Shown here: in pieces, positions 21-15,155 of the stretch
How positions within the stretch are numbered: position 1 is the stretch's first letter
How the letters are laid out: each line of letters opens with the position of its first letter
From: Polaribacter sp.
GTDB taxonomy: Bacteria; Pseudomonadota; Gammaproteobacteria; Pseudomonadales; Cellvibrionaceae
Reading direction: 5' to 3'
Assembly: GCA_964226685.1 (NCBI GenBank)
Contig: CAXQRU010000078.1
Coordinates: 1-18,183, forward strand
Length of the DNA: 18,183 nucleotides
Notes under the pieces: model-generated
Databases searched by the model: none
What the model was told of the DNA's origin: nothing
What the model saw: only the letters and a program-made list of their open reading frames with translations
Program-made: the position numbers and the translations under genes

Positions 21-21
21 G

Positions 22-77
22 TTACATGTAAGAAAAATAATTATTACATGTAATTTTTGTTGACATGTTACATGTAA
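22..77. promoter_or_regulatory. Three copies of the perfect 10-bp palindrome TTACATGTAA (22-31, 44-53, 68-77), a candidate operator array
   Basis: Direct reading. The copies are identical and their centres are 22 and 24 bp apart, about two helical turns. Copy 2 extends to the 12-bp palindrome ATTACATGTAAT. Copy 3 lies inside the -35/-10 spacer of the promoter below. Confidence 0.6.
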
Positions 78-87
78 TAGCTATAAT
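60..87 (+). promoter_or_regulatory. Sigma70-type promoter with TTGACA (60-65), a 16-nt spacer and TATAAT (82-87). The predicted transcription start falls at or near the ATG at 94, so the mRNA is leaderless.
   Basis: Both hexamers match consensus exactly. No Shine-Dalgarno sequence precedes the ATG at 94, and the -10 ends 6 nt before that ATG. Confidence 0.55.
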
Positions 88-93
88 CGACCT

Positions 94-714
94 ATGATTA
101 AAAAAACATCAGCCTATTATCAACGAAAATACCGCGAGCGCCTGCGAGAACAGGGGCTGGTGAAGCGCGAAGTGTGGGTTAAACCCGAGCACGTTGGGCT
201 TTTGGCGGACATTGAGAAGCAATTGAGAGATCCTTTGCTATTGGATAAACCATCGGTAGGAATCAGTCAAATGAGTGAAACACAAAAATGGACCAACGAT
301 ACCTTGCTCACCGCGCTTGCGAACAGCCCATTGGGCGATCGTATCAGCATTGAAGTGGTCGAGGGTGTAGAGCCAGCGCTCTACATTGTTATGCATGATT
401 ACGGTGATCTACCCCTATTTGCCACCATTGTTGGCGATCAGATCATTGTTGAGGCCGCGCTTTGGCCGGCTGATGCCATAGCCGATAAGGCCGCATTTAA
501 TGAGGTGGTACTAAAGACCCACAAGTATTTTCCTTTATCAACCATCAGCTTAGACACCATGAGCGACGGGGTTGATTATTACCAAATGTTTGGCGCCCTA
601 AGCGCCACATCGACCCTACCCAATGTAGTATTTGAGGTAGAAACCCTGGCTGACAACGTGATTCAAGCGACATCAGCCTATAGTGAATTTTTGAAACCAG
701 ACGCATACGCATAA
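94..714 (+). CDS. Fusion protein with an N-terminal ribbon-helix-helix-like (RepB-regulatory/Arc-like) DNA-binding domain and a C-terminal YjfI-like DUF2170 domain. Putative autoregulator of the operon.
   Basis: 206-aa ORF. The N-terminus YYQRKYRERLREQGLVKREVWVKPEH fits the [YRER..G…V.W.] pattern of small ribbon-helix-helix-like regulators. The segment from the internal MSETQKW onward (…MHDYGDLPLFATIVGDQIIVEAALWP… PLSTISL… YYQMFGALS…) matches, from memory, the motifs of E. coli YjfI/DUF2170. Its stop lies 15 nt before the next gene, which suggests translational coupling. Confidence 0.6.
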   Translation: MIKKTSAYYQRKYRERLREQGLVKREVWVKPEHVGLLADIEKQLRDPLLLDKPSVGISQMSETQKWTNDTLLTALANSPLGDRISIEVVEGVEPALYIVMHDYGDLPLFATIVGDQIIVEAALWPADAIADKAAFNEVVLKTHKYFPLSTISLDTMSDGVDYYQMFGALSATSTLPNVVFEVETLADNVIQATSAYSEFLKPDAYA

Positions 715-729
715 GCGAGGAGCGCAAAA

Positions 730-1416
730 ATGAATATTTTAAAGAAGATGATTACAGCATTGCGCGGCGGCATCAACGAAGCCGGCGAAGCCATTATTGA
801 CACCCAAGCCCTGAGAATCCTAGATCAAGAGATCAGGGATGCTTCCGAAGAGTTAAAACGCTCGAAAGATAGCTTGGCCGAGATTATTGCCAAAGAAAAA
901 CTGGCCAATCAGAAGTGCGATGTCACCAGCAAGAAAATTACAGAGCACGAAGGCTACGCGGTTAAGGCGCTAGAACAGCAAAACGAAACCTTGGCCCTAG
1001 AAGTGGCCGAGAAGATCGCCGAGCTTGAAAATCAACTCGCAAACGAGCAAACTGTCGCCCAAGAATTTGCCCAAAGCGGCAATGACCTGCGGGCCGCAAT
1101 CCTGCAGGCCGAGAACAACTTGCGCCATCTTAAGCAGCAGGTGGATACGGTCAAGGCAACAGAGAGCGTACAGCGTGCTCAAGAAGCGGTGGCCGAGCGC
1201 CATAGCGGTGCCAATAGCAAGATGCGCACAGCAATGGATTCTCTTGAGCGCATTAAAGAGAAGCAAGCACTGAAATCAGCGCAAATGAGTGCAGCCAGGG
1301 AGATGGCTAACGAAACGCCGGAGTCGTCTTTGGCAAGCAAACTGGAAGCGGCAGGCATTACCACCTCAACCAGTGCCAGCGATGTGCTTGAGCGCCTAAA
1401 AAAGAAGGCTAAGTAA
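730..1416 (+). CDS. PspA/IM30/Vipp1-family protein (ESCRT-III-like), YjfJ-like
   Basis: 228 aa. There is an N-terminal amphipathic helix (MNILKKMITALRGGINEAGEAI) and a long coiled coil. It carries the motif …VKATESVQRAQEAVAERHSG… and a tail …AAGITTSTSASDVLERLKKK that I recall from E. coli YjfJ. The ribosome-binding site GAGGAG sits 8 nt upstream. Confidence 0.8.
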   Translation: MNILKKMITALRGGINEAGEAIIDTQALRILDQEIRDASEELKRSKDSLAEIIAKEKLANQKCDVTSKKITEHEGYAVKALEQQNETLALEVAEKIAELENQLANEQTVAQEFAQSGNDLRAAILQAENNLRHLKQQVDTVKATESVQRAQEAVAERHSGANSKMRTAMDSLERIKEKQALKSAQMSAAREMANETPESSLASKLEAAGITTSTSASDVLERLKKKAK

Positions 1417-1484: not shown

Positions 1485-2195
1485 ATGTTCGCAATATTAT
1501 TAACTGACAAAATGGATGTGTTTTATAAAAACATATTGTCCTTCCCTACCATTGTTTTTAGCATACTATTGTTAATTTGCATCCTATTTTGGCTGGTAGC
1601 CATTCTAGGATTTCTCGACATCTCATTTATGGATCCCGATGTCGACGTTGGAGATGTCGGTGACATTGGAGATGTAGGAGACGTAGGCGGCGACGCCGGC
1701 CCAAGTGCTGTGGCCGGTATCATCCAGCGCTTTGGTCTCAACGGTGTACCGCTAACCATCATTATTACATCCATTTCTTTGATCGGCTGGCTCATTAGCT
1801 TCTATACCGTACACATTCTATTCCCTCTGATTCCAAGCGGCTTACTGACGTGGGTTGCCGGGGTAGGCACTCTATTAGGGGCGACCATCGGCGCCACGTT
1901 TATTACCGCCATGCTCATCAAACCTCTGCGCCCTTTGTTTAAAAAGCTTGAGGTACACCTCGACAAACGCATCGTAGGACAAACGGCCAAAGTGAGAAGC
2001 TCGCGAGTGGACCAAGCGTTTGGTGAGGCTGTTTTAGAAGATGGTGGCGCAGGCTTGATATTAAAAGTTCGCTCAGCCGATCATCAGGTCTATGGCCGAG
2101 GCGATGATGTTGTCATCATTGACTATGTCGAAGCAGATAATACCTTCAAAGTTGTTTCACTTGAGGAATTTCAATCCATGAGATCCTCTATTTAA
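1485..2195 (+). CDS. YqiJ-like inner-membrane protein with a C-terminal NfeD-like OB-fold, the partner of the flotillin
   Basis: 236 aa. The N-terminal half has several hydrophobic transmembrane segments and an acidic loop, DVDVGDVGDIGDVGDVGGD. The C-terminus (VGQTAKVRSS…GAGLILKVRS…GDDVVIIDYVEADNTFKV) is beta-rich, as in NfeD or YqiJ. The gene sits directly upstream of an SPFH/flotillin gene, the arrangement of E. coli yqiJ-yqiK. The ribosome-binding site is AGGAGG. Confidence 0.7.
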   Translation: MFAILLTDKMDVFYKNILSFPTIVFSILLLICILFWLVAILGFLDISFMDPDVDVGDVGDIGDVGDVGGDAGPSAVAGIIQRFGLNGVPLTIIITSISLIGWLISFYTVHILFPLIPSGLLTWVAGVGTLLGATIGATFITAMLIKPLRPLFKKLEVHLDKRIVGQTAKVRSSRVDQAFGEAVLEDGGAGLILKVRSADHQVYGRGDDVVIIDYVEADNTFKVVSLEEFQSMRSSI

Positions 2196-2226: not shown

Positions 2227-2289
2227 ATGCAAACCATCACCAAAGGACAATCTCGTCCTACTCATACATTAATGGAGAACACACTATGA
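2227..2289 (+). CDS. Possible 20-codon upstream mini-ORF (MQTITKGQSRPTHTLMENTL). Its TGA stop overlaps the flotillin ATG as ATGA.
   Basis: A strong Shine-Dalgarno sequence, AAGGAG, lies 10 nt upstream. The stop overlaps the start of the next gene. No homology is claimed. It may only be a coupling or leader ORF. Confidence 0.2.
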   Translation: MQTITKGQSRPTHTLMENTL

Positions 2290-4199
2290 GCGAGTACATC
2301 CCACACCTTATGACTTTATTGATCGTCGTCGGGGTGATCTTTGTTGTCCTTTTGGGCTTCATTGCCATCGTTAAGGCTTGGTATATTAAAGTTCCTCAGG
2401 GAACCGCCTTGATTGTTAACGGCATCCGCAACATCAAAGTTAGCTTTACTGGCGCACTGGTTTACCCTGTGATCAATAAAAAGGAATTTATGAAAATATC
2501 CTTAATTACCTTGGAGGTAGATCGCCGAGGTAAGGATGGTTTGATCTGTCAGGATAATATGCGTGCGGATATTACCGTAGCATTTTATCTTCGCGTAAAT
2601 GAAACTGCAGCCGATGTATTAAAAGTTGCCAAATCGTTAGGTGCCGATCGCGCGTCAGATAAAAACGCCGTGAATGAATTATTTAATGCTAAATTTTCTG
2701 AAGCGCTAAAAACCGTGGGCAAGCAAATTGAATTTACCAAGCTGTTTGAAGATCGCTTGGAGTTTCGCGAAAAAATTGTTCAGGTCATCGGTAACGACTT
2801 AAACGGCTATATCTTGGAAGACGTAGCTATCGATTATCTTGAGCAAACCCCAAAAAGTGCGCTAGATCCAAACAATACCATGGATGCTGAAGGTATTCGC
2901 AAGATCACGGAGCTGACAGCTATTCAAAACATAACCACCAACATGCTAGAGCGCGATGAGCAACTAGCCATTAAAAAGAAAGACGTGGAAACCTATGAAG
3001 CCATGCTGGAGCTAGAGCGCCAGGAAGCCGATGCCGCCGCCAGACAAAAGCGCGAAATCGAAACGTTGAAAGCGCGAGAAGAAGCAGAAACCAAAAAAGT
3101 TCAAGAGGAAGAACGCAAAAAAGCGGAATCAGCCACTATTGCCGTTGAGCAAGATCTAGCTGTGCAAATGGAAAATCAAAAGCGTGAAATCGAAGTAGCG
3201 GAACAAAACCGTCAGCGCGCCGTAGTGATTGAAATGGAAAAAGTCACCCGGGCACGCGATCTTGAAATCGTTTCTCGCGAACGTGAAGTTGAGCTGCAAA
3301 GAATCGAGGCTGAAAAAGCCGTCGAGGTGGAAAAGAAAGAAATAGCCAACGTCATTCGCGAGCGTGTAGCAGTGGATAAAACCGTTGCTATCGAAGAAGA
3401 GCGTATTAAAGAAGTGCGTGAAGTGTCAGAGGCTGATCGCTTAAAGCAAGTCCAAGTATTAGAAGCGGAAGCACTTGCTGAACAGGCAAAAGTCAAAGAA
3501 GTGAAAGCGGCTGAAGCACAAGAAATCTCAGCCAAACATAAGGCCCTTGAAATCACAACGATTGCTCAGGCTAAGTTAGAGGCCGCGGCCAAAGAGGCCG
3601 ATGCCAAGAAGAAATTGGCTGAGGCCACCCAAGCAGAGCGTGCAGCCCCCGGTTTAGCCGATGCCAAAGTACAAGAAGCCAAAGCCGAGGCCTTAGAGAA
3701 AGAAGGTTTGGCCGAAGCGCATGTGATCAATGCCAAAGGTAGCGCGGAAGCTGAAGTCATTGCGAGCAAAGGTGATGCCCAAGCGAAAGCGGACAAAGGC
3801 ATTGGTTTGGCGCATGCTGAAGTCACTCGTGAGCAATTTAAAGCTGAAGCCGATGGCTTGGTTGAGAAATTCAATGCTATGGGCACCATGAGCGATGCCG
3901 CTAGACAACATGAGGAATTCCGCATGAGTCTTGAGACCGCGCTCAAAGAAGCACTCGCTTCAATCGACGCCGGCAAAGACATCGCGAAAGAAAATGCGGA
4001 AGTACTGGCCACTGCACTTCAAAGAGCGAAGATCGATATTGTGGGTGGTGAGGATCACTTCTTCAATAACTTTGCGAAAGCCTTGTCGATGGGTAAAGCG
4101 ATTGACGGCTTAGCAGATAAGAGCAGCATGCTGGGCTCGATTATCAGCAAATTTATTGATCGCCCAGAAGATGTGGTTGCTGAAGAATCAGCAGAATAA
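2286..4199 (+). CDS. Flotillin-like SPFH/band-7 protein (YqiK family) with an extended E/A/K-rich coiled coil
   Basis: 637 aa. An N-terminal transmembrane helix (LMTLLIVVGVIFVVLLGFIAIV) is followed by an SPFH core (…ALIVNG… GKDGLICQDNMRADITVAFYLRVNE…). A long EA/KA-repeat coiled coil and a flotillin-type C-terminus follow. Confidence 0.85.
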   Translation: MSEYIPHLMTLLIVVGVIFVVLLGFIAIVKAWYIKVPQGTALIVNGIRNIKVSFTGALVYPVINKKEFMKISLITLEVDRRGKDGLICQDNMRADITVAFYLRVNETAADVLKVAKSLGADRASDKNAVNELFNAKFSEALKTVGKQIEFTKLFEDRLEFREKIVQVIGNDLNGYILEDVAIDYLEQTPKSALDPNNTMDAEGIRKITELTAIQNITTNMLERDEQLAIKKKDVETYEAMLELERQEADAAARQKREIETLKAREEAETKKVQEEERKKAESATIAVEQDLAVQMENQKREIEVAEQNRQRAVVIEMEKVTRARDLEIVSREREVELQRIEAEKAVEVEKKEIANVIRERVAVDKTVAIEEERIKEVREVSEADRLKQVQVLEAEALAEQAKVKEVKAAEAQEISAKHKALEITTIAQAKLEAAAKEADAKKKLAEATQAERAAPGLADAKVQEAKAEALEKEGLAEAHVINAKGSAEAEVIASKGDAQAKADKGIGLAHAEVTREQFKAEADGLVEKFNAMGTMSDAARQHEEFRMSLETALKEALASIDAGKDIAKENAEVLATALQRAKIDIVGGEDHFFNNFAKALSMGKAIDGLADKSSMLGSIISKFIDRPEDVVAEESAE

Positions 4200-10246: not shown

Positions 10247-11338
10247 TTAAACTCGCTCAAAACCCCAACGACTGTAACGGATCAAGCCTTTTAATTCCAA
10301 CATCATTAAGCCCGAAGCCAGCTCACTGGAATCTAAGCAAGTCATATCGGTTAATAGCTCCAAAGATACGGTATCAAATCCCATAGCATCGTAAATGGTT
10401 TGCTCGTTCGGCGCTAAACCTTCGCTGGATCGTGCCTCGTGAGCAAAGGCCTTAATGGGACTCAATACATCCTCCAAATGCTCGGCAATATCCTCTGGCG
10501 ACTCGGCCAAAATGGCGCCCTGGCGAATTAATTCGTGTGGCCCTTTAGACTGTGGATTTTGGATGGAACCTGGCAAGGCAAACACTAAGCGATTTTGCTC
10601 ATTGGCCAAACGCGCGGTAATTAGTGAGCCGCTTTTAATGGCAGCCTCCACGACAATGGTGGCACAACTTAAGCCGCTAATGATGCGATTACGCTCAGGG
10701 AAGTGGCCGGCACGGGGCGGCGTGGTCGGTAAAAACTCGCTCACCAACGCACCCCCATGTTCTAAAATTTCCTCAGCCAAACGCTCGTGACGCTTGGGGT
10801 ACACTGAGTCCACGCCCGTTGCCATCACCGCAATGGTGGGCTTGCGCTGATCCACCACGGCCTGATGGGCGGCACCATCAATACCGATCGCCAAACCACT
10901 GGTGACCACAAAACCGCTCAGAGCCAATGATTGCGCAAAATAGCGCGCGTTGCGCGCGCCGCCGGCACTGGGGTGGCGCGATCCCACAATGGCCAACTGC
11001 GGCAAGGTTAATGGGCTAACATCGCCGCGCACAAATAACACCAAGGGCGGTCGCACGGTTTGTGCCAACAAGGGCGGGTAATGTTCACTGCCGTAAGCGA
11101 CCAGTGTGGCTCCAAAGCGTTCTAACTTTTCCATCACCGCCTGAGCTTGGCGATGCAATGGGCTGGCAGCCCCTGCCGCTTGATAATTGCCTAAGGCTTG
11201 TTTGGCTTTGTCATTGATGGTGAGGGCCTGTGGGTCAGCGTTTAAGATCGCTTCAGGGGTTTGAAAGTGCTCAAGCAGTTGCCAAGCGGTATTGCGGCCA
11301 ACGCCGGGGAGTAATTGCAATAATAAATAGGGGGACAT
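10247..11338 (-). CDS. dprA: DNA processing protein A (DprA/Smf)
   Basis: 363 aa. It has the DprA Rossmann-like core (…LAIVGSRHPSAGGARNARYFAQSLALSGFVVTSGLAIGIDGAAHQAVV… TIAVMATGVDSVYPKRH… ALPGSIQNPQSKGPHELIRQGA…). The ribosome-binding site is AAGGA. Its GC content is visibly higher than that of the flanking genes. Confidence 0.9.
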   Translation of the reverse strand: MSPYLLLQLLPGVGRNTAWQLLEHFQTPEAILNADPQALTINDKAKQALGNYQAAGAASPLHRQAQAVMEKLERFGATLVAYGSEHYPPLLAQTVRPPLVLFVRGDVSPLTLPQLAIVGSRHPSAGGARNARYFAQSLALSGFVVTSGLAIGIDGAAHQAVVDQRKPTIAVMATGVDSVYPKRHERLAEEILEHGGALVSEFLPTTPPRAGHFPERNRIISGLSCATIVVEAAIKSGSLITARLANEQNRLVFALPGSIQNPQSKGPHELIRQGAILAESPEDIAEHLEDVLSPIKAFAHEARSSEGLAPNEQTIYDAMGFDTVSLELLTDMTCLDSSELASGLMMLELKGLIRYSRWGFERV

Positions 11339-11598: not shown

Positions 11599-13665
11599 AT
11601 GAAACCTGAAACCGCAGCTGGTGTCAGGGTAGATACTCTGCACCAACAAGATCCTCCTACGTATTTAGGGGATCTAGCCAAAAACCAACTTGCCGTCAGA
11701 GGCCCTGTAAGAGCCAATGACCCAAGAGCACTTAACCAACTCCACAACCGCATGGAGAAATTTGCACCATTGGGTAGCGAAACGGATCGAGCCACGGCTC
11801 CCAGTAACTTTGTTAGTGGTGTCTTTGCTATCGCAGCGACAACTCTGGCTGCCGTTACTCTGCCGGTGCCAGCGTTTGCGGTAGCATCGGTGGGTCTTTT
11901 AGCTCGCTCTTACGTTTCACAACGCGCAGAAATGCGCAAGAAACTATTGGCTAGCAATAAAGACTCGGTCAATGCTTTCCAGCGAATGAAGGCCGCAAGG
12001 ACTTCAAGAGCTGAAGCTAAGACTCAAGGCCTAGCGTTTAGCCTCAAGAGTTGCTCAAAGATAATGGCTTGGCGACAAGTCAGAATCAGTGCGGCGAGTA
12101 TACCCTTGCTTACAGCTATTGGCTTGGGTATTGGCAGCGCCGCTGGCACCATGGGCTTATCGCTGGTGGGAATAGCCGCTGTGGCTGCTATCTCCTTGGC
12201 CGTGAGCTTGGCCGCTCAAGCTTTAGCAGCCTCCAAAGCTGACAAAGCCGCGCTCGAAGCTGAAGTACAACAAGAAGCGCTTCAACAGTATTCTCTTGGG
12301 TTACCCACCCACGGTGAGAATGGAGAAATCCTGCCTCACTCAGACAATGAGAATATCAAAGAAGTGCCCGAGGCGCGCCGAGCCTACCTAGTAGACAAGG
12401 TCGTTCGAGAGCTTAACCGCAACCCCGCCATTGTAGCGCCACCACCGGCTACCATTGACAGGGCTCCTTCTACCGATGATGACCAGTATTCATTGACCCT
12501 GGATGAGGATGGAGCAATCCTACCCAACCCACGACCAGTGAATATTATCGGCAACCCTGACAATCTAGTCCCAGATGATGGGTTTATTACGTTTGAAGGG
12601 GAGCAGTATGGGGATCCCGTTGGAGATGATCCAGATCCTCAAGTGGGTGCTCTTCCTGCCGGTGCATTTCCTGTGGGAGCGTTAATTGGCGGAGCCGTTC
12701 AGTCTGTGGTTTCTGACCACAGTTCTGCTGGAGCAAGAGGCAATGCCTCAAGTGTGGGTACTGTGGCCAGTGAACGGACACAAAAGCCATTTCGGGGGGG
12801 ATTTTTCAAAAGCCTACAGGTGTTTGCGCGTTCGCACACACGCCTCTTAGGCTTTGGAATGAATCCTTTTAAGGAACCCAGTGAAAATGACTTGGTCTCT
12901 TACCGAAATGCGGTACACCGCTCCAACCAGGTCGCCAATCGCTTTACCGATAATGGTAAACGCTTTGGTGCCTATGTGGGTGCGGGTGCCGGGGCTTTTG
13001 GCGCCGTTGGTGCTGCGGGTATTTGGTTAAAACACGGTAGTGATCAAGATTTCGAGTTTGATGGTGCCCATCGGTTATTTGGCCCATTAGGTGGAATCTT
13101 GTCGGCGATATCAAGCTGTTACAGTTTGTTCGCCTCCTCGGATGTAAAGCCTGTTGAACTTAGCGATAAGCTCAACAGTACTCTACAACCAAGGCGCTAC
13201 CAAGCGAGTCCAGAGCAACTTGACAGGGTCAACCTAATCAAGAGCTGGGGCAAGTGTAAACCATCGCTCAATGAGCGGCGCAAAGCCGCGGGCATTAACG
13301 TGGCTACGGCCGCAGCCTTAACCGCTTTGACGGTGGCGTCAATACCCGCTGGTGGCATTCCCATTGCCATTGTGGGTTTTGTTGCGATTGGCACTGCGGT
13401 TGCGAATATGGCGTCTTCGACCTATCTAGCAGGTTGGCGTTACAATAAGGCGGTGATCAAACAGAAATGTTTTGATGATTGCGTTAAGTTGGCGGCCCAG
13501 GGGCGGCTTTTTACAGGTCGGGAGTATACTCCTGAAGCTCGTAACAAGCTCAAATCTTGGGCAAATCCGAAAGGCGGACCTCTGAGTTTTAAAGAGGTGC
13601 GACTTGAGGCTTTGGATGCCGAACGTCATATTAATAAGCTGCGTTCTCAACTGCTGATTCGCTAG
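11599..13665 (+). CDS. 688-aa hypothetical protein with several Gly/Ala-rich hydrophobic (glycine-zipper-like) segments and a Pro/Asp-rich linker. No family recognised.
   Basis: The ORF is long and free of stops. The ribosome-binding site AAGGAG lies 6 nt upstream. Its hydrophobic segments include IAATTLAAVTLPVPAFAVASVGLLA, LLTAIGLGIGSAAGTMGLSLVGIAAVAAISLAVSLAAQALAA, AYVGAGAGAFGAVGAAGIWL and VATAAALTALTVASIPAGGIPIAIVGFVAIGTAVANMA. A strong terminator follows. Confidence 0.7.
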   Translation: MKPETAAGVRVDTLHQQDPPTYLGDLAKNQLAVRGPVRANDPRALNQLHNRMEKFAPLGSETDRATAPSNFVSGVFAIAATTLAAVTLPVPAFAVASVGLLARSYVSQRAEMRKKLLASNKDSVNAFQRMKAARTSRAEAKTQGLAFSLKSCSKIMAWRQVRISAASIPLLTAIGLGIGSAAGTMGLSLVGIAAVAAISLAVSLAAQALAASKADKAALEAEVQQEALQQYSLGLPTHGENGEILPHSDNENIKEVPEARRAYLVDKVVRELNRNPAIVAPPPATIDRAPSTDDDQYSLTLDEDGAILPNPRPVNIIGNPDNLVPDDGFITFEGEQYGDPVGDDPDPQVGALPAGAFPVGALIGGAVQSVVSDHSSAGARGNASSVGTVASERTQKPFRGGFFKSLQVFARSHTRLLGFGMNPFKEPSENDLVSYRNAVHRSNQVANRFTDNGKRFGAYVGAGAGAFGAVGAAGIWLKHGSDQDFEFDGAHRLFGPLGGILSAISSCYSLFASSDVKPVELSDKLNSTLQPRRYQASPEQLDRVNLIKSWGKCKPSLNERRKAAGINVATAAALTALTVASIPAGGIPIAIVGFVAIGTAVANMASSTYLAGWRYNKAVIKQKCFDDCVKLAAQGRLFTGREYTPEARNKLKSWANPKGGPLSFKEVRLEALDAERHINKLRSQLLIR

Positions 13666-13876: not shown

Positions 13877-14686
13877 TCAAAAACCAGCCACGCCCATGCT
13901 ATGGCGCTTAATCTCAGTAATTCTCTCGACCAAAAAATTGCGCTTACGATAAGATTGGCATAAGCCCATTTTGCGATAAATATTTTTTTGATGGGTTTTG
14001 AGCGTATTAACGGATTTGTTCAACTCCTTGCTGACACTTTCACGATCCCCTGACTTCGAATAAGCAATCGCCACTTTGGCCTCTTCTGAGGTCAACGAGT
14101 ATCGATCAATCAAGGTCGCCCCGATCACTTGCTCCTCGATACAATGGGTAAATTTTGGGTTTTTCAAAATACCCCACCGAGCAGAGCGCTGAATATGAAT
14201 GGCCACTCGATTCAAAGTATCCATCGCTTCGTGAGTCACGCTATTTGGGTCAACCAATAGGCTTAAGGTGGTATAACAATTACCGTATTCAAAAAGGCGC
14301 AGCACAATGTAGTCCTCGACTTGAGCTTCTAACTCAACGCGACCACGAACCAAAGAGCGGCTGTACACCTTAAATTTGCTATTTTTATCAAAACTCAAGG
14401 TGCCAGAGTTTAACTGCAAGTTAACCTGAGCCCAGACATCCAGTTCGCCGAAATACTCGTTGTAACGCTGGACAAAATCGTGCTCCATATTGACCAAAAA
14501 AGAATGCTCAAAAAAGCCCTGATCCAGCAACACTTCACCGGTTTTCATGTTGCGATGCAAAATAGCCGCTTTGCCGCCAGAAAACAAAGAACACAAGTCT
14601 TGCAAGACGATATGCCAATGGCTAGGTTTATCGGCTGCCTGATAAATGCTATCAATAAGATGATTAATATTTTTTTCTGAAATCAT
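13877..14686 (-). CDS. LuxR/GerE-family transcriptional regulator with an uncharacterised ~190-aa N-terminal domain
   Basis: The C-terminus …LTSEEAKVAIAYSKSGDRESVSKELNKSVNTLKTHQKNIYRKMGL… fits the LuxR-type helix-turn-helix. The N-terminal domain is neither a receiver nor an obvious autoinducer-binding domain. The ORF opens with a GTG at 14695, but the first ATG is at 14686 (MISEKN…). Confidence 0.75.
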   Translation of the reverse strand: MISEKNINHLIDSIYQAADKPSHWHIVLQDLCSLFSGGKAAILHRNMKTGEVLLDQGFFEHSFLVNMEHDFVQRYNEYFGELDVWAQVNLQLNSGTLSFDKNSKFKVYSRSLVRGRVELEAQVEDYIVLRLFEYGNCYTTLSLLVDPNSVTHEAMDTLNRVAIHIQRSARWGILKNPKFTHCIEEQVIGATLIDRYSLTSEEAKVAIAYSKSGDRESVSKELNKSVNTLKTHQKNIYRKMGLCQSYRKRNFLVERITEIKRHSMGVAGF

Positions 14687-15155
14687 AATTACCACTGTTT
14701 TTCTTATTTCGGTTAAACAATCACCAGCACTACGAGTATCAATTCGTAGATAGATGCAGTTGGAAAAATTTAAGTGATAAAAAATGCCAAAATGTGAATA
14801 AAGTCACACTTTTTGTGATTTTTGCGGGGAACTACCAAGGAACAGCGGGACAATTGCCAAGCTTACCAACCTAATACCACAAAATAACTTAACACTCAGC
14901 TCTAGAATGATTGCCAAAGCAATGAAGGTTATCGTTATGAAAACTTATCTCTGCCAAAATAGAGAGGCTAAGCCAACGGTTTTCTTTTTAGGAAACAGCA
15001 ACCTATCAAGAACGATAATACTGCTCGAACAGCAGAACTTGTGAAAACTGAGTCAGCCGAAGCTAGGTGCCACTCGTGACTCGCAGGCACCAAATTGGCA
15101 CGCAATATACACGACAACTGTTAAGTGTTCAACATTTCAACTGTAATATTACGGT

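Follow-up and report, generated by a model that had tools for sequence, protein, structure and literature searches.

A conserved palindrome array at the promoter of a bac operon and its probable recognition by BacA

Contig CAXQRU010000078.1 (GenBank assembly GCA_964226685.1) carries, close to the start of the 18,183-nucleotide stretch analysed here (the whole of which is called the window below), three identical copies of the 10-bp palindrome TTACATGTAA, which lie just upstream of and within a promoter at the head of a five-gene operon whose first gene encodes a homologue of BacA from Pseudomonas aeruginosa. The locus raises the question of which protein reads these palindromes, and with what consequence for the operon. 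We regard it as practically certain that the TTACATGTAA-type motif is a real, conserved cis-element, and we place at roughly 0.8 the probability that BacA itself binds the palindromes and represses its own operon. Positions 21 to 96 are likely to be the control region of this bacA-bacB-bacC-bacD(-ATPase) operon, a Psp-like membrane-stress or biofilm cluster. The elements of the region are these:

22 to 31, no strand: predicted operator O1 (distal), an exact match to TTACATGTAA, centred at -67.5 from the A of the ATG
44 to 53, no strand: predicted operator O2, extended to the perfect 12-mer ATTACATGTAAT at 43 to 54, centred at -45.5, upstream of the -35 hexamer
60 to 65, plus strand: -35 hexamer TTGACA, from the promoter scan
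68 to 77, no strand: predicted operator O3 (proximal), inside the -35/-10 spacer, centred at -21.5
82 to 87, plus strand: -10 hexamer TATAAT, from the promoter scan
94 to 96, plus strand: start codon ATG, with the predicted transcription start at its A, from the geometry and from the start mapped for the orthologue of P. aeruginosa PA14

The three exact copies start 22 and 24 bp apart, just as the sequence-only reading of this DNA had described them, and the motif has no other exact occurrence in the 18,183 bases; in 200 dinucleotide-preserving shuffles, the mean was 0.00 copies, with no shuffle containing even one. The two hexamers and their 16-nt spacer match the sigma-70 consensus at 12 of 12 positions and form the sole perfect match returned by the promoter scan in the first 2.5 kb. 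O3 fills the spacer of this promoter, in agreement with the earlier claim that one palindrome lies between the consensus hexamers, O2 ends 6 nt before the -35 hexamer, and six bases (88 to 93) separate the -10 hexamer from the ATG at 94. A degenerate fourth match, TGACATGTTA at 61 to 70, has two mismatches and overlaps the -35 hexamer; such matches occur at chance level at that stringency.

Is this arrangement peculiar to one contig, or is it conserved more widely? A metagenome scan recovered 80 homologous loci, which are phylogenetically related and of which non-redundant sets of 73 or 76 were counted. Across 73 loci, the degenerate motif YYACATGTRR occurs 157 times in the 10.6 kb upstream of bacA versus twice in 372 kb of flanking sequence, making it about 2200-fold denser ahead of the gene. 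At least one site is present in every locus (73/73), at least two in 64, three in 18, and four in one; when one mismatch is allowed, 75 of 76 loci have at least two. By the distance of their centres from the ATG, the sites fall into three classes, at -20.5 to -24.5 (58 of the 157), at -42.5 to -48.5 (70 of the 157), and at -64.5 to -70.5, and neighbouring sites are 22 to 23 bp apart, that is, two helical turns, in 80 of 96 pairs. The extended operator consensus across loci reads A-TYACATGTRA-T, while the commonest -35 hexamer is TTGACA and the commonest spacer is 17 nt long. P. aeruginosa, P. piscis, and Lysobacter carry TYACATGTGA at about -45 and -23, and the AT-rich core ACATGT is retained in these three despite genomes of 63 to 67% GC; in P. 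aeruginosa, the two sites are TTACATGTGA at -44.5 and -22.5, and the -10 hexamer TAGTGT ends 6 nt before the ATG. The positions of the palindromes relative to the promoter are thus kept in 73 to 76 homologous loci and in these three genomes, which bears out the repressor-operator layout proposed from the window alone.

The same word also turned up in a scan for paired motifs, in which 18 viral contigs (L091-L108) had paired or tandem TTACATGTAA arrays, including three tandem GATTACATGTAAGGCATTTCAG units in L092 and three to five TTACATGTAA copies in L098, L100, L101, and L106. None of these 18 contigs has an open reading frame (ORF) resembling BacA, BacB, or the N-terminal part of BacA, and their arrays are presumably an unrelated use of the same word, as an operator or iteron in other systems. 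A full-text literature search with the motif strings found no relevant bacterial operator, and the half-site order and spacing do not appear to fit CRP/Vfr, LexA, Fur, or TyrR-type boxes. A genome-contig search with a single BacA protein produced one match, an irrelevant actinobacterial locus.

The next step is the identity of the protein that reads the sites, for which the sequence-only reading had put forward the product of the first gene as binder and autoregulator. The relevant features of that gene are as follows:

94 to 714, plus strand: bacA-like gene, ORF1, 206 aa, assigned by NCBIfam NF050185; 46% identity to P. aeruginosa BacA over the full length
94 to 228, plus strand: N-terminal basic domain, residues 1 to 45, a candidate DNA-binding module, delimited by conservation and coding signature
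289 to 693, plus strand: DUF2170 domain, residues 66 to 200, Pfam PF09938 (E 1.6e-47), which resembles type III secretion chaperones

NF050185, 'biofilm formation regulator BacA', is a 206-position equivalog model built on Pseudomonas, and it matches residues 1 to 204 of the 206 in ORF1 with 288.5 bits (E 2.3e-86), against a curated cutoff of 300 bits. The DUF2170 domain matches PDB 8q8o at E 2e-35, and its AlphaFold2 (AF2) model has a predicted local distance difference test score (pLDDT) of about 90. About 1,350 BacA homologues were detected, of which the best 120 cover 96 to 100% of the query, so that the roughly 65 residues ahead of DUF2170 are real. In an alignment of 29 homologues, residues 1 to 45, with the consensus MKxKSSAHYQREYRRRLREQGLVKKEVWIRPENAKxLAxxEKxLR, are the most conserved part of BacA; Met1 is common to nearly all, and a variable linker comes next. 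At the nucleotide level, codons 4 to 45 of 69 distinct sequences show 0.24, 0.15, and 0.54 differences per site at the first, second, and third positions, with 63% of the codon differences being synonymous, a pattern that shows the N-terminal region to be translated.

The distribution of the motif follows this domain rather than DUF2170. The E. coli yjfI gene encodes a DUF2170 domain and has no N-terminal domain, no palindrome upstream, and an ordinary leader, whereas the BacA-like gene of the megaplasmid pQBR103 has the N-terminal domain and is preceded by TTTCATGTAA, TTACATGAAA, and TTACATGTAA. Moreover, a P. aeruginosa mutant in bacA is reported to build up excess amounts of the other Bac proteins (Mace 2008, PMC2587700; Wallart 2024, PMC10948618), which fits autorepression. 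It might still be that the palindromes serve a different, unlinked factor and that the BacA N terminus has some other role, for example in protein or membrane interaction, a reading favoured by the lack of an above-threshold match between this domain and known DNA-binding families and by the empty fold searches. We consider this unlikely, however, given that the motif is nearly confined to bacA promoters (157 sites versus 2 in flanks), that it tracks the N-terminal domain through Pseudomonadales, marine gammaproteobacteria, Lysobacter, and the megaplasmid and is absent at E. coli yjfI, and that the products of the operon are derepressed on deletion of bacA itself; an unlinked factor would need to co-occur in all these lineages. 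BacA is the probable binder because the motif is almost private to its promoters, because it tracks an N-terminal domain that is basic, conserved, and remotely related to repressors, and because the mutant accumulates Bac proteins. The proposals of binding and of autoregulation by the first-gene product thus both gain support.

The megaplasmid operon, from P. fluorescens SBW25 (L088, 5800-6600), is a mosaic of E. coli-type yjfJKLMC-like genes with bacC- and bacD-like genes, and its BacA-like gene has an extra N-terminal tail and a Shine-Dalgarno (SD) sequence. Short gene calls of 132 to 147 aa were considered as natural variants without the N terminus; the two that were checked are accounted for by a cut at a contig end and by a frameshift.

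What kind of domain is it? A profile search of 1.8 billion representative proteins uncovered free-standing homologues of 44 to 80 aa, whose profile aligns with that of the BacA N termini with an hhalign probability of 99.7%. All 20 BacA N termini compared, including that of the window, match NCBIfam NF041430, 'plasmid repression protein F' (best E 5e-5), which we take to be the RSF1010 repressor F, and 9 of the 20 match the MazE-like family PF11455 weakly (E about 0.01). Among 50 free-standing relatives, 20 match NF041430 (best E 8e-7), 16 match the MazE-like family (best E 8.9e-6), and one matches the LexA-regulated protein YbfE. The earlier description of this domain as ribbon-helix-helix-like is not supported: Pfam lists no ribbon-helix-helix family for the window protein at E values up to 10, and AF2 models built for the whole protein and for residues 1 to 50 place a helix at 6 to 19, an unstructured or low-confidence segment at 20 to 30 around VKREVWV, and a second helix at 31 to 45, that is, helix, probable strand, helix and not strand-helix-helix. 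A strand at 20 to 30 could pair only in a dimer. The ribbon-helix-helix label is a guess, although a compact 10- to 12-bp palindrome could be read by a ribbon-type or another small dimeric protein. Sequence and profile searches of the PDB retrieved no relative of the domain, the best matches being at noise level (the ATP-dependent protease 7cay, E 0.048, and the KorA-domain protein 7bca, E 0.26).

The remaining part of the question concerns where transcription and translation begin. Transcription canonically starts about 7 nt after the -10 hexamer, and since only six bases lie in this gap in the window, the A of the ATG at 94 is the predicted start; the same 6 nt leave no room for an SD sequence. 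All four genes downstream of bacA, by comparison, have purine-rich SD-like sequences. Among the related loci, the start codon is ATG in 75 of 76, an SD-like motif lies upstream of it in only 2 of 76, and a TAnnnT hexamer ends 5 to 8 nt before it (mode 7) in 54 of the 68 loci in which a -10 hexamer could be placed. In Table S3 of Wurtzel et al. 2012, PA14_16140-16150 is transcribed from 1374599, its annotated ORF begins at 1374776 after a 5' untranslated region of 177 nt, and the operon ends at 1375929 (PMC3460626). When these coordinates are mapped onto the P. aeruginosa locus L083 (bacA at 3001-3621 in L083/L084), 1374599 is the A of the Met1 ATG of the 206-aa form, and the annotated start is Met60. 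Since this start, mapped by differential RNA sequencing (dRNA-seq), falls on the first base of the long-form ATG, PA14 bacA has a leaderless mRNA, and its gene model, which begins at Met60, lacks the first 59 codons. The -10/ATG geometry, taken with the PA14 orthologue, makes it very probable that the first gene of the window is leaderless too, and the absence of an SD sequence, which had also been claimed from the window, is nearly general in the family.

Two further observations concern starts. A subclade (L020, L021, L035, L039, L051, L060, L067, and L074) has 28 to 29 nt of AT-rich sequence, lacking an SD sequence, between the -10 hexamer and the aligned ATG, and is either not leaderless or uses a different start. 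In PA14, transcription unit 843 has an internal start site at 1376533, 129 nt upstream of bacD (PA14_16180) (PMC3460626, Table S3), which means that the operon has at least one internal promoter that would lie outside the control of BacA operators.

Met60 could alternatively be the true start, served by an internal SD sequence, in which case 94 to 270 would be a 177-nt 5' untranslated region, with neither a DNA-binding domain nor leaderless translation. The PA14 annotation and PDB 8q8o both use this codon, and an SD-like motif precedes it in 75 of 76 loci. The coding pattern of codons 4 to 45, in which the third position varies by 0.54 against 0.24 and 0.15 and 63% of the differences are synonymous, makes such a reading highly improbable, as do the many invariant residues, the Met1 common to nearly all homologues, and the 206-position NCBIfam BacA model, which spans residues 1 to 49; moreover, internal and upstream starts can coexist. 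The crystal structure 8q8o, of 146 residues, likewise starts at the counterpart of residue 62 and lacks the N-terminal domain. In Wallart et al. 2024, the BacA structure has a type III secretion system (T3SS)-chaperone-like fold and no DNA-binding domain is described (PMC10948618); only the T3SS-chaperone-like fold was seen because the crystallised form begins at about Met60.

Nor does it seem at all probable that the promoter is of the sigma-54 type, with a Psp-type enhancer-binding activator and merely incidental sigma-70-like hexamers. The classical psp operon is sigma-54 dependent, which lends this idea some appeal. Wallart et al. 2024 propose -24/-12 elements by sequence inspection alone (PMC10948618). 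The pattern TGGCAC-N5-TTGCW, with up to three mismatches, has no match, however, at positions 1 to 100 of the window or on the coding strand of the approximately 580 nt upstream of P. aeruginosa bacA. The -35/-10 geometry is, in turn, kept in about 70 loci, and the mapped PA14 start lies 6 nt past the TAGTGT -10 hexamer. The site proposed there, if it was placed relative to Met60, would fall inside the true coding region.

Several observations weigh against BacA as a DNA-binding autorepressor of a leaderless operon and need to be set beside the evidence in its favour. The window N terminus scores only 22.8 bits against NF041430 (E 7e-5, residues 7 to 45), whose cutoff is 100, which makes it a remote relative and not a member; its score against the MazE-like PF11455 is 15.9 bits (E 0.013), below the gathering threshold of 22; and no curated DNA-binding family matches it above threshold. 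The AF2 models of the monomer reach only moderate confidence (pLDDT about 73), and the fold searches yielded nothing usable. Of five contexts of free-standing homologues, only one has a comparable site (L110/L111, a 9/10 match). A co-variation between the operator variant and residue 12, seen in TCACA half-sites at 12% in Glu-12 clades versus 42 to 60% in Leu-12 and Val-12 clades, was rejected as evidence, as it parallels GC content and phylogeny. The 6-nt gap of the window is at the short end of the family range, and the dRNA-seq start comes from PA14, with that of the window itself being predicted. Furthermore, Wallart et al. 2024 propose a sigma-54 promoter and a protein-protein mechanism (PMC10948618), and DNA binding is a prediction for this as for any other BacA.

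The one free-standing homologue with a comparable site, a protein of 54 aa, is encoded on an iteron-rich contig (L110, 1801-2520, and L111) with repeated TTGCGCCCCA, which is plasmid- or phage-like; the operon promoter there reads TTGCAG-(GTAACATGTAAC)-TATAAT, with the 9/10 operator match in its spacer.

If BacA is the reader, the system could work as follows. Transcription from the sigma-70 promoter would begin on the A of the bacA ATG or no more than one base away from it, and bacA would then be translated from the leaderless mRNA. The three palindromes, 22 to 24 bp apart, lie on one face of the helix, one in the spacer, one just upstream of the -35 hexamer, and one a step further. Their most likely reader is full-length BacA (206 aa), which would bind through its basic N-terminal 45 residues, probably as dimers and, as the same-face spacing suggests, cooperatively along the array. 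A protein bound inside the -35/-10 spacer excludes RNA polymerase, and by blocking the polymerase in this manner, bound BacA would repress the operon that encodes it. Centres near -45 and -67 are also the classic positions of class I activators, and BacA might, on binding, be mainly an activator or a dual regulator, which recruits RNA polymerase from O2 and O1 and represses from O3 alone. The weak -35 hexamers of many loci, such as TTGAGT and TTTACG, would be in keeping with such a role; it is nevertheless quite improbable, since the bacA mutant accumulates Bac proteins rather than losing them, the 12/12 consensus promoter of the window needs no activator, and the spacer site is among the most constant.

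Repression by BacA could also be responsive. According to Wallart 2024, the DUF2170 domain dimerises in the BacA crystal, and an AF2-predicted BacA-BacB interaction with a probability of 0.981 is published (PMC10948618). Through this predicted contact with the PspA-like BacB, the DUF2170 domain would make repression depend on the state of its partner, a coupling that is plausible, if speculative.

A further layer of control may reside within the bacA coding region:

258 to 273, plus strand: internal SD-like AGGA at 258 to 261 and in-frame ATG at 271 to 273 (Met60), a possible second start, from counts in related loci

Met60 and Gly56 are near-invariant inside the otherwise variable linker of the 29-homologue alignment. 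In 75 of 76 loci, the internal Met has an SD-like motif 5 to 18 nt ahead of it, as do 12.9% of other codons, a contrast whose nominal p-value overstates independence because the loci are phylogenetically related and which remains large even so. The neighbouring glycine is encoded by GGA in 53 of 73 cases versus 65 of 719 elsewhere in bacA. This constraint at the nucleotide level suggests a second, SD-driven start that would yield a DUF2170-only form of about 147 aa, and we see the production of two BacA isoforms as possible, at somewhat less than even odds. A more elaborate scheme, which we offer tentatively, is that one leaderless transcript gives rise to a full-length autorepressor from its 5'-terminal AUG and to the short DUF2170-only form from Met60, that the short form and/or BacB binds the chaperone-like domain of the long form and so sets operator occupancy, and that membrane stress, with BacB as its sensor, leads to derepression. 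If this is true, the locus would represent a Psp-type circuit on a sigma-70 leaderless promoter, its DNA-binding domain would come from an uncharacterised family of about 45 residues that is also found in phage- and plasmid-like contigs, and the published structure and biochemistry of BacA would cover only the short isoform.

Downstream of bacA, the operon and its surroundings are organised as follows:

730 to 1416, plus strand: bacB-like PspA/IM30 gene, Pfam PF04012 (E 3e-44); 55% identity to P. aeruginosa BacB
1485 to 2195, plus strand: bacC-like gene; 38% identity to the P. aeruginosa bacC product
2286 to 4199, plus strand: bacD-like gene, 637 aa; 70% identity to P. aeruginosa over about 500 residues
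4268 to 9700, plus strand: DUF3686-DUF7902-AAA ATPase gene, 1810 aa, from Pfam; the last gene on the plus strand, which ends the operon

The order bacA-D is the same in the window and in P. aeruginosa, with identities of 46, 55, 38, and 70%, and by sequence ORF1 and the next three genes are orthologues of P. aeruginosa bacA-D. The bacD-like product is the most conserved of the operon (70% to P. aeruginosa, against 46% for BacA) and has no Pfam match; its pQBR103 homologue is annotated as containing an SPFH domain. All family matches of the bacC-like product are below threshold (Na_Pi_cotrans, 17.8 bits against a cutoff of 29.1; EbrA, E 0.012), and a membrane role drawn from these transporter families would be a guess. 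The DUF3686 label of the 1810-aa protein, which also has an AAA+ domain, reads 'ATPase involved in DNA repair'. Convergent to the operon, on the minus strand, is dprA (10247-11338), beyond which lie a 688-aa ORF without a family match (11599-13665) and a LuxR-type (GerE) regulator on the minus strand (13877-14695); none of these three has TTACATGTAA-like sites.

On the other side, the window ends abruptly next to the array:

1 to 20, no strand: Illumina adapter remnant, not genomic and outside the feature, from the adapter match and comparison with the contig L116

These 20 letters (ACACGACGCTCTTCCGATCT) are what we take to be the last 20 nt (3' end) of the Illumina TruSeq universal adapter. 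In the near-identical contig L116, identity to the window starts at position 20/21 and the sequence before that is unrelated, which confirms the adapter at 1 to 20 and means that the first palindrome adjoins an artificial contig end; the assembly was thus left untrimmed of adapter at this end. The native locus in L116 has exactly the same three palindromes, and its 1.3 kb of upstream sequence contains neither a further palindrome nor another strong promoter-like match.

These findings bear on a cluster of some importance, as the P. aeruginosa bac genes affect biofilm formation, rhamnolipid secretion, swarming, and virulence, and BacA has so far been described in print as no more than a 'possible regulator' that lacks a known mechanism. 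From the comparative evidence comes a concrete, testable one, with a 10- to 12-bp operator, a leaderless promoter of the sigma-70 type, and an N-terminal domain that had been overlooked. The same evidence points to a start codon placed 59 codons too far downstream as the basis of the PA14 gene model, of the crystallised protein, and probably of the proposed sigma-54 promoter. Sequence-specific DNA binding emerges as a likely function for a family of very small proteins that are now unannotated or labelled 'hypothetical'. More generally, the locus adds a well-supported chromosomal leaderless gene in Gammaproteobacteria, and the combination of a leaderless start with a conserved internal ribosome-binding site in one gene provides a convenient system for the study of dual initiation.

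Among known systems, the closest is P. aeruginosa BacA (PA3732/PA14_16140) of the bacA-F 'biofilm-associated cluster', which is orthologous, has the same gene order and the same upstream layout, and exerts the negative control on its operon that we propose for the window (PMC2587700; PMC10948618). The window differs in having three perfect sites and a perfect consensus promoter, where P. aeruginosa has two sites. The published P. aeruginosa work describes no operator and no DNA-binding domain, proposes sigma-54, and crystallised the form that starts at Met60 (PMC10948618). In the yjfIJKLMC operon of E. coli, YjfI has a homologous DUF2170 domain and is followed by a PspA-family gene, as in the window, yet it is a protein of 133 aa without the N-terminal domain, without an upstream palindrome, and with an ordinary leader. 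As regards the form of the circuit, lambda cI transcribed from PRM and tetR of Tn1721 are likewise leaderless, with transcripts that start at the A of the AUG and lack an SD sequence, and both repress themselves via tandem operators. These, however, encode helix-turn-helix proteins with operators of 17 to 19 bp, whereas the palindromes of the window are 10 to 12 bp long and its gene heads a five-gene chromosomal operon.

Small dimeric regulators such as Arc, MetJ, CopG, and the MazE-like antitoxins (PF11455) act on short palindromes in tandem arrays, and BacA is only weakly PF11455-like. Another parallel is repressor F of the IncQ plasmid RSF1010, a small basic protein that autoregulates the P4 promoter of its own operon (PMC2200642, citing Maeser et al. 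1990). Repressor F is a free-standing plasmid protein of 68 aa, and the BacA N termini match NF041430 far below its cutoff (22.8 versus 100 bits); a literature search on UrfF brought up nothing relevant. The literature searched likewise yielded no account of the operator, of the leaderless sigma-70 promoter, of the N-terminal domain, of the misplaced start codon, or of the internal ribosome-binding site.

In the Psp system of E. coli, PspF is a sigma-54 activator that is inhibited by PspA. The bac system resembles the PspA-PspF pair in that a PspA-family effector adjoins a regulator predicted to bind it (BacB and BacA), in a negative feedback. Unlike PspF, however, BacA looks like a repressor of a sigma-70 promoter with a chaperone-like sensor domain, and no sigma-54 site was found. 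The BacA family and its negative effect on the operon are already published, and systems of this general type are classical: an autorepressor acts on tandem operators at the promoter of its own operon, whose first gene, like lambda cI, is leaderless. What is new in the system of the window is the placement of a small repressor module, joined to a chaperone-like domain, ahead of a PspA-family operon, a solution to the control of PspA-family proteins that differs from those built on sigma-54/PspF, LiaRS, and ClgR.

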